Positions 48,001 through 54,000 of a stretch of DNA of 64,000 nt are shown here, piece after piece. Source of the DNA: Escherichia coli (GTDB lineage Bacteria > Pseudomonadota > Gammaproteobacteria > Enterobacterales > Enterobacteriaceae); the NCBI RefSeq assembly GCF_050320075.1, contig NZ_CP190018.1. One strand, written 5' to 3'. Position numbers: made by a program. Each line of letters opens with the position of its first letter. The first letter of the stretch is position 1.

Positions 48001-51000
48001 AATCATTCCGTTGATCTGGGAGCTGCCATCATGCAACCGGGCCGTCAGGCCAGCACGACGGGTAACGTGGTGGCGCTGGGGGAAACACCGATGATTCTGA
48101 CGCTGGATCAACTGCGCCCCAACCCGGATAACCCGAGGACCACGCGTAATCCACGGTACGACGATATTAAAAGTTCCATTTTCTCCCGTGGACTGGATAC
48201 GGTGCCCAAAGTCACCCGGATACCTGAGAGTGAGCCGGATATCTATATTTTCAGCGATGGTGGTAACACGCGATATCAGATCCTGAAAGAGCTGTGGGAG
48301 GAGACCGGCGATCAGCGTTTCTACCGTATTCATGTGCTTTTCAAACCATGGCCGGGACGGCTTCAGTGCGTCATTGGTCACCTGGCTGAGAATGAGGTCA
48401 GGGGCGAACTGACGTTTATTGAAAAGGCCCGGGGTATCCATAAAGCACGGATGATTTATGAAGAGCAGTTAAGCAAAAGTGTGTCCATGCGAGAGTTGTC
48501 ATCCCTTTTGACTGAGCAGGGATTACCGGTGGATGCATCCAGTATCAGCCGTATGGAGAACACCCTGAAATACCTGTATCCGTGGATCCCCGAACTTCTG
48601 GAATCAGGATTAGGAAGACCACAGGTCAATTCACTGTTGTCTCTCCGGCAGGATGCGGAACGCATCTGGGGACAGTTTGCGGTGGCAACAGAGCACGGGG
48701 CGGATTTTGACCGCGTGTTTGGTGAATGCTGCAGCAAATTCAATTCACCGGAGCTCTGGTCACTGGAGATGTTCCGGGATGAGCTGATTGGTGATCTGCT
48801 GAAAGCGTTACCACATCCGGTGCTGGATTATGACCGCTGGTTGCTTGAACTGGATCCGCGCGAGCGTAACCGACGTCATCATTTTGGCGAACCTGAGCCG
48901 GTGCTCATTCCTGCAGACAGTGATGCGATGCCAGAGCCTGTGACTCACGGTGTGTCGGCAGTGACGGCGGAGAAAGACTGCGTAAGGGATCAGCCTGTGA
49001 TTTCCGCACCGGCTGACCATGACACCGTCATGAATACGGAGCAATCCCCGGCTGGAAAGGCGGAGAGTTCAGTTACTGAACAACGCGAAGAACGCCGCAG
49101 AAAGGAAGTCCAGCCGGATATGTATGGTGGTGAAGAAACATACAGTGGCGATTACGAAGAGGATGGCGATACCCGTGATGCTGTGGATCTGCCGGTAACG
49201 TCACCGGAAGAGGGGGCTCAGCAGAGCAGCGGTGAAATTTTCAGTGAGCCGGCATTCAGCGTCGGTGAACTGGATGATATCGAATATCTGCAGAATGAGG
49301 CATTTCACCTGGCATGGGAGCTGGCGTCACACACAGGCTGTGTCGATGAACTGGCTATGGACAGGGAAAGCGAACTGTCTGCGGGATTCTGCGCGGCAGA
49401 GGCGAATTGTTCTCCTGTCATGGCATTTCTTGTCAGGCTGACCGGTGAGGAGGTTCTGCGGGTTAATCCGGTTTCTCTTGATGCACTGCTGATTGGTGGC
49501 AGTACTGAAGAAGAGCCACCACTGCTGGATGATGAGCATGCCGGGAAGTTACTCCGTCTGCTTGGGGTGTTGCGTCGTCTGCGGGGGCTGCAGCGCCAGG
49601 TGGAAGAAGAGAACGTGGAGGGGCGTGATGAATAATGATGCAGCACGTCAGGAGCAACTGATTAAACGGATAAGAAAACTGCTGGCGCTGAGCCGGAATA
49701 ACAGTAATTCCCATGAGGCAGGTCAGGCTCTTTCCCGCGCACAGGCGCTGATGCGGAAGCATGGTATCACCGAACTGGATGCTGATATTTCGGTGATAAA
49801 AACCTCATCATCAAAGGGAGCACCGTCAGAAGCGGAAAAAGTTCCGGTATGGATGGGGCGCCTTATGAATGTTGTTGCAGGGGCATTCGGATGTCATACA
49901 TACCTGGATTGGCGTATCACAACCGGAGGATACTGGCGGCGGATTGTCACATTTTATGGTTTTGGGGAGCGTCCGGTTGTGGCGGCGTATGCCTTTGATG
50001 TTCTCTGCCGGCAGATGCAAAAGGCGACAAAAGAATATCTCTCAACCCAGAGCCGGAAATTAAAACAGTCAACCCGTCGTGCAAGAGCTGCGATGTTTCG
50101 TGACGGCTGGGTTTATGGGGTGCGTGATGTGGTGGATGTATTCCGGCTCACAGAAGATGAGACGTGTGTAATGAATACGTGGCTGCAGAACCAGCAATTT
50201 GAGGGAATGGTCGTCTTCCGGGAGGTAAAGGACTGCTATGGCGGTGACCATGCACGCTGGCAGGGATACAACGAGGGGAAAAAGGCAACGCTGCATCACG
50301 GTGTTGATTCCCGGGATCTGAGACCGGAAAGCCTGATATCGGGCGGAGGTGAGGTATGAGTAATAACTTGTCACAGGCCACCAACGGACTGTTGATGCAA
50401 CTGGTGATGGATCTCAAAAGTGGCTATCTGCGCCGCTGTGAAGCGCTGGGGCTTTCCCGGGAAGAAATGCAGATGCTGCAGGGGCTGAGTATTGAGGAAA
50501 TTCACTATCTGTCAAATTCAGAGGTGTCAGTGCTGCGGCTGGATATTAACCACAATAACCTTGTACGCATGCTGCAGCAGGCCAGGACTGAACAGAAACG
50601 CCTGCAGCGAATCGATCGCGCTCTGGCACTGGGGGGATCGATTGAGCTCATGGCGTTTTATTTTGGCCTTTCCAGTGTGGACGTTGCTGCACGGCGCCGT
50701 ATTTCAGGTATTGATGTGCGCCCGGGGCGGGGTATCACACTCAGCGATGATGAAAACTCTGAACTCTGGAGACTGTGGCAGAAAGCAGGGATTAACGATG
50801 TGGAGAGCGCTGACGGGCTGGATGTCATGATGCTCTGTGCAGAGCAGATGAATATCCCGCTCACAGCCGTCTGGCATGCTGTCCGGGGGTGGCATACAGC
50901 CGGAAGCCCTGAACAGGTAAGGAATGCGTCATGAAGATGAAAGAGCTGGTTCCCGGTCTGCTGAGCTGTCCCGGGGTACCGCCAGCCTGCCAGCGGAAGG

Positions 51001-54000
51001 CGGTGGACCTCGTTAACCGGTTTCGTCGCGGGGAGAGGAATTACCATGAACTGAAGGAAAAGGGATTCGGGTATATCAAGATTAATGTTGGTCCGGACTG
51101 GCGGTTACTGAGCAGGAACCGGGGACGAACCTGGGCACTGTTGAGTCACGAGCGATACAACAACATGAGGCTGAGGTAGAGAAAAATGACTGATTTTGGT
51201 TCAACTAAATATAACGCCAGTTTTGAAGAATGGCATGAAGTGTTAATGGACTATGCCGGGTTACGTGGTGGAAGTGCCGCCGATGCCGAAGCATGGCGCG
51301 ATGACTATGAAGCTGGAAAAACGCCTGTCGAAGCATATTGCGATGAGTGGGGTGATGAATGAGCAAGTATGAATGCGAGACGCTGGCAACTGAGAATGCG
51401 AAGCTGAAGACAGCACTCCCTCAACTGTTCGGGAAAGCTGAAGGAGCGACAAAATGAGCAAGCCAACCGACGAAGAAATAGTTCGGGTGTTGGAAGAACA
51501 CGGGCGCTGTATGACTTACGTCGTGACCAACTGGCTTAGGGATAAATATCGCACACTCAAAACGGCATACGTTTTGCGTCGTCTAAAGAAACTGGAGTTC
51601 GACGGGAAAGTAAAGCGTGTTACCAGTTCTTATATAAGACAAATTTGCTGGGAGGCAACCAGTGAGCAAGATTGACTATCAGGCACTGCGTGATGTGGCA
51701 GTGAAAGCCGGTGAAGATAAGTGGCAGGCTAAAAAAATAAACGGTGATTTTTTCGTTATTCGTCAAGGTAGTTATACAAGACAGCATGGCTACACATCGT
51801 ATCAACCCATTGCGGAGATTGATTGTAAGCCAGTCCGGGATTTTGTTGCCAGGGCTAATCCGGCTACCGTGCTGGCTCTGCTGGATGAACTGGAAGCAGC
51901 AAAACAGCATATCGCCGAGTTGGAGTCTCGCATCGTCACCGCTGCCGCCGCTGACGTACTGGCTGAGCGCCAGCGTCAGGTCACCGTAGAGGGCTGGACA
52001 CCTGAACGTGATGATGAATACACCGATGGGGAACTTCCGAGGGCCGCGAGCTGTTATGCGCTAATGGCATGGCGCGAGGAGTGTCTGAGCGATGGTGAGT
52101 ATACCGCCAGCCAGAAAGCCATTCCGTATTACTGGCCATGGGATCCGGCATGGTGGAAACCCATCGACCCGCGGTGTGACCTGGTAAAAGCTGGCGCGTT
52201 AATTCTGGCAGAAATCGAACGCATCGACCGTGCCGCTGGCATTCGCACCAAAGGAGAGTGATATGGCGTTAACACACCGCGAACTCTGTCAGATTGCGTA
52301 CAAGTTCCTTAAGCGCAACGGGTTCAAGGTTTGTTTTCATGACCGCTTTATAGCTGTAACCAGTACCGGAGAACAACCAGATGCTATGGGATTCAGAAAT
52401 TCAGCATCATGCCTGATAGAGGCGAAGTGTTCTCGTGCTGACTTGTTGGCAGACAGAAAAAAGCGTTTTCGTAAAAATCCGTCTCTTGGAATGGGCGACT
52501 GGCGATTCTTTATTAGTGAGCCGGGAATTATTTCAGTTGAGGATTTACCACCTGGCTGGGGATTACTTCACGTTGTTAACGGAAGAGTACGGAAAGTACA
52601 TGGGTGGCCCAGGGGTAATTGCTGTTGGGGTAATCCTGACGATAAGCCATTTACTGGAAATAAGCAGGTTGAATGCGATTACATGTTATCTGCATTAAGG
52701 CGAATGGAGTTGAGAGGGCACCTTAATGAAATATATGACGGTGTAATTGTTAATAAGAAAGAAGGAAACGCGGCATGATCACTATTACCAAAGAGCGACT
52801 GCTGACAATCAAGCAGTGGCGCGAAACATACGGACCGGGTAGCAACGTTGTACTGCCAGCAGAAGAAGCGGAAGAACTGGCACGGATTGCACTGGCATCG
52901 CTGGAAGCGGAACCGGTGGCGTGGATGTGTGATGACGAAGATGGTCGTGAATATAACGGTCATAACGAGTTTTCTTATGGAAGACGCGGGATTCCCCTTT
53001 ACGCCGTCCCGCCAGCGCCGAATGGATTGGTTAAAGCCGTGGCTTTCTATGAGCAGGTTAAACGTGAAAATCCGCCAGTTGAAACGGGAGCATGGAAAGA
53101 TGCCGTTGACTGGGTGCTTAAACAAGCTTGTCAGTCTGTAAACACTGGCATCAATGAAAGAAGAACAATTGAAGAAAATGACGATTGAGCTGGAAGCTGC
53201 AAAAAAGCGCATTGCTGAACTGGAGGAGCGTCGGTCATGAGAAAAATCAGTGGAATGTTGAACCTGGAGAAGGCCAGGATGCAGTTGCATGTTTTGTTAT
53301 CAGGACCGGTTCCTGCAATCACTCCGATGGCGCATGCCGTGGCAATAAAAGTTGTGCTTGATGCTCTGGATGCGAGTGAGCGGAGGGTGGCAGAACTGGA
53401 ACAGGCCTGCGCTGCCGCTGGCATTCGTATCAAAGGGGAACAAGTGAAATGAAACTGAAGATGCAGGCAATGGACGGCCCGGTGATTATAGAAAGTAGTG
53501 ATGTGACACAGTTTTACCCTGACCATGAAAGTGGCGGGGAACTCACAGCTGTTGAGTACCTTGCTGACGGGGGAAGAATCACCGCGAGGGTGAGGCACTC
53601 TTTTTATCAGGTTGCTGCGGCACTTGCCGGGGCATGGCGTGCGGATGATGCGTCAAAAAGCGGTGGGTGAGGACTGTGCCGGAATGAGTGTCTGTTCCGA
53701 AGCTGCTGAGCCGCGACATAAATTTTTTATGTTGCGGTGAAGCAGCCGACAAACGAAGAGCGTCAGCGTATCAACAGTTAAGGAAAATATCTTCTGAAGC
53801 CGGACGCGACAGTCAGTCCGGTGGTGCTCGTGTGGTGAAGTGTTTAGCCTGCATCTTTGACAGGGTTCAGTTATAAGCATTTCGGAAACCGTTCCCCGGC
53901 GCAGTCTGCCGGGATTTAAGGAGTTTATTTATGGCGCTACCTGCAGAAAGCCTTATTGCGCATACGCTCAGAAAAATGAAGGCCAGCATGGCAGAGAAAG

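Follow-up and report, generated by a model that had tools for sequence, protein, structure and literature searches.

We have analysed a window of 64,000 nucleotides of Escherichia coli DNA (assembly GCF_050320075.1, contig NZ_CP190018.1), the whole stretch to which all positions below refer, and in it a string of nine consecutive open reading frames (ORFs) that fills positions 50931–53670 on the + strand, inside an ICE's replication region (ICE, integrative and conjugative element). The string is probably a composite, in which the first gene, ORF1, belongs to the ICE backbone and ORFs 2 to 9 make up a cassette of phage genes that occupies a fixed slot between the ParE-like ORF1 and an STY4528-family gene, has been reshuffled, and would be expressed by read-through.

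The nine products measure, in order, 82, 58, 32, 73, 199, 171, 137, 71 and 73 aa. The original prediction had these genes linked throughout by ATGA or other overlapping junctions; the nine same-strand ORFs were found as predicted, but overlaps join them at only five of the eight internal junctions, four of them ATGA overlaps (58/32, 32/73, 171/137 and 71/73 aa) and the fifth a 14-nt overlap between ORF4 (73 aa) and the 199-aa ORF. Short gaps lie after ORF1 (6 nt) and between the 199- and 171-aa ORFs (1 nt, TGAtATG), and 48 nt separate the 137- and 71-aa ORFs, where the sole bridge is a 28-codon frame without a Shine-Dalgarno sequence. GGAG/AAGGAG-like motifs can be read in the sequence upstream of all nine ORFs. 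Homology is strong for eight of the nine, so this is not a chance ORF structure. Three antisense ORFs, of 203 aa (52679–53290), 155 aa (53131–53598) and 129 aa (50658–51047), have no PHROG match at all and were set aside as spurious.

The locus is 100% identical to that of E. coli YZLc1-3 (NZ_CP123240), on whose record the Prokaryotic Genome Annotation Pipeline (PGAP) places an SPI-7-type island. The annotated products are parA, dnaB-PI, ParB, DUF2786, DUF2857, a ParE family toxin-like protein, hypothetical proteins, an ead/Ea22-like protein, an STY4528-family replication protein, topB, STY4534, ssb, pilL and traD, and the order parA, dnaB-PI, ParB, DUF2786, DUF2857, ParE-like, STY4528, topB, STY4534, ssb, pil/tra is that of the ICEEc2/SPI-7/pKLC102-PAGI-2/ICEclc family, whose position beside a tRNA-Phe remnant the element also shares. 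With this syntenic core, its TIGR037xx ICE genes and the adjoining tRNA gene remnant, the backbone is of the SPI-7-type/ICEclc family, and the element is most likely an ICE of the SPI-7/pKLC102/ICEclc family, of the ICEEc2 type, at the tRNA-Phe gene; pheV and pheU are described as the insertion sites of ICEEc2-type elements (PMC11537424). The att repeat at the parA end (44528–44605, − strand) is called a tRNA-Ser by PGAP, an identity that we reject: it consists of the 3΄ part of tRNA-Phe (…GGGGATTGAAAATCCCCGTGTCCTTGGTTCGATTCCGAGTCCGGGCACCA; 3΄ fragment 44528–44580) fused to unrelated 5΄ sequence, and neither ARAGORN nor Rfam reports a tRNA at the site. Rfam likewise gives no RNA gene in 44400–57000 at E up to 1. 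A kps capsule locus abuts the island. Cassette ORFs carry the UniProt names D9CH30_ECOLX, D9CH37_ECOLX and D9CH38_ECOLX from an earlier deposit from an E. coli strain, which may be that of ICEEc2, and the arrangement in the window, with the 32-aa form, the 199-aa allele of Ea22 and a shorter right half, is rare, being present in 3 of 5426 complete E. coli genomes.

The division between backbone and cargo comes from 46 related ICE loci of other Enterobacterales, collected through an alignment of diverse DUF2857 proteins with one genome per species; they come from Kluyvera, Erwinia, Edwardsiella, Pantoea, Serratia, Morganella, Xenorhabdus, Photorhabdus, Pectobacterium, Brenneria, Cedecea, Rouxiella and Enterobacter, among others. 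When all window proteins were searched by tblastn, the ParB, DUF2857, ParE-like and STY4528 genes proved contiguous in 45 of the 46, with the ParE-like gene directly after DUF2857 and directly before STY4528, at a distance of 30–380 nt from the latter. No homologue of any of ORFs 2–9 was found in the 46 loci. Relatives in Salmonella enterica and Klebsiella pneumoniae likewise retain the ParE-like gene and have an empty slot. Since the ParE-like gene is kept where ORFs 2–9 are missing, ORF1 is a conserved ICE backbone gene that lies outside the phage cassette, and ORFs 2–9 are an insertion; the idea that all nine ORFs form one phage-like unit fails at its first gene. The filled slot is what sets the window element apart from its other-genus relatives. 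On the right, the alignment has backbone conservation restarting about 95 nt upstream of the STY4528 start, at ~53840, which puts the end of the cassette at ~53835. By this comparison the cassette comprises ORFs 2–9 and about 165 nt of trailing DNA, from 51180 to ~53835, in all 2.65 kb. Its G+C content, 0.47–0.51, is slightly below that of the backbone (0.52–0.555).

ORF1 (50931–51179, +; 82 aa) scores 69.5 bits against Pfam PF24732 ParE_like (cutoff 24.4) and carries a block, WRLLSRN.G..WEL..HERYN, that is conserved across the ICE family. Its AlphaFold2 (AF2) model has a predicted local distance difference test score (pLDDT) of 90.3, and the best Foldseek matches are the RelE/ParE-superfamily toxins HigB, RelE, YafQ and YoeB, whose small alpha/beta fold the protein may share; these matches are marginal (probability up to 0.97, E 0.045–0.5, template modelling score ~0.5), with no PDB match at E ≤ 0.001, and a sequence search of the PDB gave nothing significant. 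In a relative from Salmonella (L059), an additional 98-aa ORF overlaps both DUF2857 and the ParE-like gene.

The neighbour of ORF1 and first gene of the cassette is ORF2 (51186–51362, +), which codes for an acidic 58-aa protein (phrog_519, E 4e-22). Matches by tblastn occur in 198 phage records, among them vB_EcoS-813R8, where the match falls in the nin region at 93% identity, an Stx2a phage (Stx, Shiga toxin; 88%) and large virulent Ackermannviridae (about 59%). The gene has a GAGG motif upstream and is identical between ICE variants. Both small ORFs had been reported as absent from the annotation; ORF2 is annotated in RefSeq (WP_001696185.1) and also figures as D9CH38_ECOLX, and only the 32-codon ORF is absent from PGAP, although other pipelines do call it. 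On these sequence matches we regard the 58-codon ORF as a real, widespread phage gene.

With a ParE-like product that is basic and a neighbour that is strongly acidic, separated by 6 nt, the two genes might be taken for a toxin-antitoxin pair in the reversed, HigBA-like order that stabilises the ICE, and the Pfam match and the RelE/ParE-superfamily-like predicted fold of ORF1 would agree with this. We rejected the pair for lack of co-occurrence. At least 45 ICE loci keep the ParE-like gene with no 58-aa homologue and with DUF2857 and STY4528 as its only neighbours, so that ORF1, in a departure from known toxins of this superfamily, has no adjacent antitoxin in any ICE locus. The 58-aa family, in the nin regions and Ackermannviridae contexts examined, has no ParE-like neighbour, and the ParE-like matches listed among phages belong to different ones (P2-like and other), where the gene sits in early operons with no annotated antitoxin gene adjoining. 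Considering also the weakness of the fold match, stabilisation of the ICE by such a pair is very improbable, and we leave ORF1 as a putative orphan RelE/ParE-like backbone gene.

ORF3 (51359–51457, +), the 32-aa ORF, has no PHROG or Pfam family match. The comparison that explains it is with SF-088, which, together with H4, represents the forms other than that of the window found in about 26 of the 29 complete genomes covering the locus. Where these forms have a 70-aa Ead/Ea22-like ORF (WP_001696186.1), the window sequence is shorter by 114 nt with the frame kept, so that the 32-aa ORF equals this ORF minus 38 internal codons: it is composed of MSK, one residue and the last 28 residues of the 70-aa protein, and the Ead/Ea22 domain is therefore missing. 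It retains ATGA overlaps at both ends. The 32-aa form occurs on about 180 contigs, called there by pipelines other than PGAP, and the 70-aa form on more than 1000. The small ORFs had been expected to be conserved, and this is so for the 58-codon gene; from the alignment, ORF3 is better regarded as a remnant than as a small gene in its own right, and it may still pass ribosomes along through its two ATGA overlaps. ORF4 (51454–51675, +; 73 aa; phrog_9799, E 9e-43) is 97% identical to its counterpart in P1-like phages and possibly a winged-helix protein, with weak winged helix-turn-helix Pfam matches only (E 0.03–0.1).

The 199-aa ORF5 (51662–52261, +), which starts with GTG, bears out the predicted Ea22-like coiled-coil protein. 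It passes the Ead_Ea22 profile PF13935 (57.6 bits against a cutoff of 27; E 2.7e-15; residues 2–94), matches 21 PHROG families (best E 6e-50), and consists of an N-terminal Ead/Ea22 region, followed by a coil and then by a C-terminal domain that differs from the one in lambda. Over its first 90 residues the protein has 89% identity with Stx1a phages; the homologues of the C-terminal domain, at less than 60% identity, are in Pseudomonas, Rhodobacter, Xanthomonas and other phages. No PDB chain matched this domain in sequence at E < 0.3, and hence neither did the lambda domain (PDB 8DSX); for the whole protein, the PDB sequence search gave nothing significant. Ea22 proteins form coiled-coil tetramers and shift lambda and Stx phages towards lysogeny (PMC7093339, PMC10834534), and their C-terminal domains are variable (PMC10834534). 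As far as its sequence goes, the 199-aa protein stands as a member of the broad Ead/Ea22-like family and not as an orthologue of lambda Ea22.

A second Ea22-related module, also predicted, lies at ORF8 (53237–53452, +), a mini Ea22-like protein of 71 aa that has the coil and an AAGIRIKGE tail without the C-terminal domain. Its PHROG match is weak (E 0.003); BLASTP aligns it with residues 57–88 and 182–199 of the 199-aa protein, and AAGIR(T/I)KGE-stop, which ends both ORFs, coincides with a 52-nt DNA repeat (D1). ORF8 is conserved in the SF-088 and SCU-171 variants. Just before it, the 28-codon frame (53154–53240, +) is an Ea22 coil remnant, ELEAAKKRIAELEERR, that matches phrog_368 and phrog_11761 (E 2–3e-4). 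A 40-nt repeat (D3) links this frame to 51886–51925; the coil motif LDELEAAKxxIAELE is encoded there and, out of frame, at 53186–53225.

ORF6 (52263–52778, +) encodes a 171-aa protein (phrog_9263, E 1e-122) for which a PD-(D/E)XK nuclease had been proposed, an assignment that the conserved motif, profile and model searches all uphold. Its family comprises 2620 clusters (50% identity; E ≤ 1e-3), some members of which match Pfam Hjc, MmcB-like or UPF0102; the window protein itself is below every Pfam threshold. All of 56 diverse homologues have D40, and conservation among them is at least 90% for E37, P39, E53 and K55, giving the catalytic motif E..PD...E-x-K. A sequence search of the PDB yielded nothing significant for the 171-aa protein, and the profile and fold searches did succeed: the family profile matches 3dnx (MmcB-like) at E 3e-4, with the motif aligned to both 3dnx and Hjc, and the AF2 model (pLDDT 94.4) has the core fold, with 3dnx again as best Foldseek match (E 2.5e-6, probability 1.0), followed by the Hjc/ST1444 Holliday-junction resolvases, the R2 restriction-like endonuclease and HincII and other type II restriction enzymes. 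Compared with the MmcB-like and Hjc-like nucleases 3dnx, 1hh1 and 2eo0, the predicted fold is the same and the E-x-PD...E-x-K residues align with the catalytic ones, but the window protein has an extra C-terminal helical part (residues 134–158). Membership of the PD-(D/E)XK superfamily is thus well supported by motif and model, and the nuclease activity, MmcB/Hjc-like, is putative. In one member of the family an Ead_Ea22 domain is fused to the nuclease domain, which suggests that neighbouring exo-xis genes may fuse.

ORF7 (52775–53188, +) is an Eaa/DUF551-family gene of 137 aa (phrog_660, E 1e-42) whose product shares an N-terminal module of 48 aa, varies in the middle and has a conserved 'GLVKAVAFYEQVKRENPPVETGAWKDAVDWV' block; the 145 bp of its N-terminal module are repeated in the SF-088 variant and common to phage DUF551 and ea22 genes. 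PGAP labels the 171-aa gene 'frameshifted' and the 137-aa gene 'incomplete'. Both are intact ORFs with the lengths of their abundant homologues, the former in a 1363-member cluster and on more than 1000 contigs, the latter in a 43-member cluster and in the same form on more than 1000 contigs, so that the pseudogene labels look like artefacts. The last cassette gene, ORF9 (53449–53670, +; 73 aa, p73b; phrog_5994, E 7e-26), is about 59% identical to ea-region genes that lie beside eae-like genes in ST64B and HK639.

Of the eight cassette ORFs, seven have a PHROG match, six of them at E 1e-20 to 1e-122, and the order of the central genes points to a particular phage region. Many Stx1a- and Stx2a-converting phages, as well as phage EC.W1-9, share the DNA at 52244–53162 at 94–96% identity, and the 171-aa protein is 98–99% identical in amino acids to proteins in more than 130 lambdoid/Stx phage records. 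In the Stx1 phage AU5Stx1, exo and xis lie on either side of the 171-aa homologue; an ead/Ea22-like gene stops 1 nt before the homologue, whose end is overlapped by a DUF551 gene that has the N-terminal module of the 137-aa ORF at its start. This gene order is that of the window. With the exo-xis ('ea') region of lambda and Stx phages, the cassette thus shares the Ea22-like, 171-aa, Eaa/DUF551-type order, the overlapping or abutting junctions, up to 99% amino acid identity and a mosaic Ea22 in which N-terminus and coil are shared and the C-terminal domain varies (PMC10834534). It differs in having no flanking exo or xis/int, in lacking orf60a/61/63/73 and ea8.5, and in being embedded in an ICE operon and not in the pL operon. 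The predicted presence of lambdoid early-region genes in an SPI-7-type backbone is in this way borne out, with 94–99% identity to Stx-phage exo-xis DNA or protein and absence from 46 or more related loci; the lambdoid source is the main but not the only one. Judged by these matches, the cassette comes from several coliphage gene pools, with the lambdoid/Stx-phage exo-xis region as main donor, accompanied by the nin region and by pieces common to P1-like and P2-like phages.

The slot has been filled in more than one way. Relative to SF-088, the window has, besides the in-frame difference in ORF3, a different Ea22 body, and is without a segment of SF-088 that has a copy of the 145-bp N-terminal module on either side. 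In SCU-171 (backbone identity about 86%) and in NC101 and GPEC1031 (about 75%), other gene sets occupy the same slot, each with an Ea22-like gene, so that such a gene is present in all five E. coli slot variants examined (the window and four others). A comparison of the window with SCU-171 gives a synonymous divergence (pS) of about 0.5 for DUF2857 and the ParE-like gene and of only 0.12–0.15 for the 171- and 71-aa genes, which indicates that the cassette genes are younger than the split of the backbones or have been exchanged since. An (A/G)TGAGCAAG motif opens three consecutive ORFs, and the recurring module boundaries are likely, from their sequence, to be recombination linkers. We propose that the cassette was built, and is still being reshuffled, by homologous recombination at four such short conserved boundaries: the 5΄ end of Ea22 (MSKIDYQALR) with its Shine-Dalgarno leader, the coil motif LDELEAAKxxIAELE, the tail AAGIRxKGE-stop, and the 145-bp N-terminal module of Eaa/DUF551 genes. 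Such reshuffling would explain how the 32-codon remnant and the 28-codon coil fragment arose and why the window differs from the sister ICEs.

The same remnants, together with the 48-nt gap, could instead mean that the cassette is recombination debris, non-functional leftovers of ICE-prophage exchange that are tolerated at the end of an operon and are of no use to the ICE. The two genes flagged as pseudogenes by PGAP, a content that varies among sister ICEs, a slot that is empty in at least 45 apparently complete relatives, and the lack of functional matches in PADLOC and NCBIfam would all fit, and we take this as possible, though rather unlikely. The 171-aa, 137-aa, 58-aa and p73b genes are intact, have the lengths of their phage homologues and show low ratios of nonsynonymous to synonymous change (pN/pS; 0.03–0.11 for the 171-aa gene, and 0 against SF-088 for p73b). 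The start/stop overlaps and Shine-Dalgarno motifs have outlasted the rearrangements, the 114-nt difference is in frame, and an Ea22-like gene has been retained in every variant. As to specific functions, NCBIfam has no match for any of the nine ORFs, and PADLOC finds no defence system among them (a weak DrmC match falls in DUF2857 only); a defence-system identity for the cassette was rejected on this ground.

How a composite string of this kind would be expressed can be read from its surroundings. The DUF2857 gene (50356–50934, +; PF11198, E 5e-66), a BisC-like gene of the ICE backbone, ends in an ATGA overlap with ORF1, and upstream of it the hyp-dnaB-parB-DUF2786-DUF2857 genes overlap throughout, so that over 45890–53670 overlaps are present at 10 of 13 junctions. 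A consensus scan of 47100–55160, in which promoters meant sigma-70 consensus sites only, returned no promoter-like or terminator-like site on the + strand. At the sequence level, the string thus has what is expected of an operon with translational coupling: a single strand, stop/start overlaps and no internal promoter or terminator seen. It does not have the self-contained character of the mini-operon that had been proposed, since no promoter or terminator of its own was detected and the overlapping string goes on upstream of 50931, of which these genes are the tail.

In ICEclc, BisC carries a DUF2857 domain (PMC7423338), and the ParB-family and DUF2857 genes at 47944–50934 correspond to the BisD/BisC pair of that element. 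BisD and BisC are the master activator of ICEclc transfer competence and form one unit with downstream genes (PMC7423338, PMC12409273). The window resembles the bisD-bisC (alpA) operon of ICEclc in having a ParB-like gene, then a DUF2857 gene and then further genes on the same strand, and differs from it in that DUF2786 is interleaved between ParB and DUF2857 and dnaB-PI lies upstream. From this gene order, the cassette is most likely transcribed as the distal part of a hyp-dnaB-parB(BisD-like)-DUF2786-DUF2857(BisC-like)-parE-like string. Because no promoter or terminator of its own was detected, transcription would come by read-through from the upstream overlapping genes, and the overlapping or abutting start and stop codons would aid translation. 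By analogy with BisDC of ICEclc, the cassette products would appear once the replication, partition and activation genes of the ICE are on; they might then act as in early phage infection, as small accessory factors directed at the host or at DNA, in the form of an Ea22-type coiled-coil oligomer and an MmcB/Hjc-like PD-(D/E)XK nuclease.

Several points weigh against the composite reading as set out here. Co-transcription and translational coupling are deduced from sequence alone, and the promoter scan covered sigma-70 consensus sites only. Parts of the cassette look decayed (the 32-aa remnant, the out-of-frame 28-codon coil and the 48-nt gap), and drift fits them as well as function does. The direction of the change between the 32- and 70-aa forms, deletion or insertion, is inferred and not proven, and the sequence at the junction in the 32-aa ORF, 'AAGTAT', is not an exact match to either flank of the 70-aa allele. 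The purifying selection seen in the 171-aa gene may stem from phages, followed by recent transfer, and not from selection on the ICE. The emptiness of the slot outside E. coli is based on one genome per species, and some Salmonella serovars carry the same ICE with the cassette.

What the cassette might do for the ICE can be considered in the light of the lysogeny-favouring role of Ea22. An ICE could have recruited exo-xis genes for conflict or cross-talk with co-resident or incoming lambdoid/Stx phages, or with the host cell cycle: the ICEs with a filled slot are all resident in bacteria that serve lambdoid phages as hosts, an Ea22-like gene is present each time, and the cassette lies downstream of BisDC-like activator genes. 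We regard this as unlikely; PADLOC gives no match to known defence systems, and the same pattern would be expected if abundant prophages simply offered the occasion for homologous recombination. In a stronger form, the ParE-like/STY4528 junction would be a dedicated capture site at which ICEEc2-type elements again and again acquire exo-xis genes of co-resident lambdoid or Stx prophages, expressed by the BisDC-like circuit so as to steer the lysogeny or induction of the prophage, or the host cell cycle, during excision, replication and transfer; the cassette would then be a functional module for cross-talk between ICE and prophage and not passive mosaicism, a notion to which we give little credence. 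The associated suggestion, that the captured sets always include an Ea22-type coiled-coil protein and often an MmcB/Hjc-like nuclease, is put forward as equally speculative.

On the right side of the composite string, the non-coding DNA that trails the cassette contains a conserved hairpin element (53702–53768) of about 66 nt with a 13-bp stem, CCGCGACATAAA-TTT-TTTATGTTGCGG, and an RNA fold z-score of −4.2. P88/P2-like phages have the element just 3΄ of their portal gene, at 82–86% identity (16 phage records and about 1000 E. coli genomes), and the stem changes between the ICE and portal-flank copies are compensatory; the element may be a 3΄-end or terminator-like structure. A P2 cos site was considered for the same segment and dropped, since inspection by eye showed no P2 cos core. 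The ICE backbone resumes upstream of STY4528 with a segment (53840–53930) conserved in all ICE lineages compared, Kluyvera included, in which the invariant blocks TGTTTA.CC.GC and TAAGCAT enclose a variable hairpin; it is a candidate promoter or operator of the STY4528 replication gene. This gene (53931–55196, +), annotated by PGAP as an STY4528-family island replication protein, forms the right flank of the slot and follows the ParE-like gene in 45 related loci. Directly 3΄ of it, at 55211–56130, a 36-bp unit is repeated in tandem, with 25.6 copies and 91% matches; PGAP calls a 'hypothetical protein' across this array, and long repeat-driven ORFs run through it on both strands. The array looks iteron-like and may be a replication origin or binding array of the ICE. 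Further on, at ~61100–63860, an IS66-family insertion sequence (ISCro1: tnpA, tnpB, transposase) apparently splits the gene for an Rpn-family recombination-promoting nuclease after ssb, according to the PGAP annotation of the identical record.

Phage-derived accessory genes in the variable regions of ICEs and linker-based module shuffling in the early regions of lambdoid phages are familiar phenomena, the ICEEc2/SPI-7-family type of element has already been described, and its ORFs are already in public databases. The mosaicism at this locus, though it offers a neat and genuine instance of genes shuffled from phage to island, is of an ordinary kind. What is new here are the exact boundaries of the cargo, the placing of ORF1 in the backbone, the nature of the two small ORFs, the fold assignment of the 171-aa protein, and the repeated occupation of the slot by Ea22 cassettes in E. 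coli ICE lineages and not in 48 or more relatives of other genera. The border between backbone and cargo is thereby fixed for a widespread family of conjugative islands of E. coli and Salmonella, two likely pseudogene calls in RefSeq (the 171-aa nuclease and the 137-aa gene) are corrected, and near-identical DNA is seen to be common to the exo-xis regions of Stx phages and an ICE. If the cassette is not functional, it offers a textbook example of module shuffling at conserved linker sequences. If it is functional, activation of the ICE would co-express Ea22-type proteins, which would be relevant to the behaviour of Stx prophages in strains that carry such an ICE.

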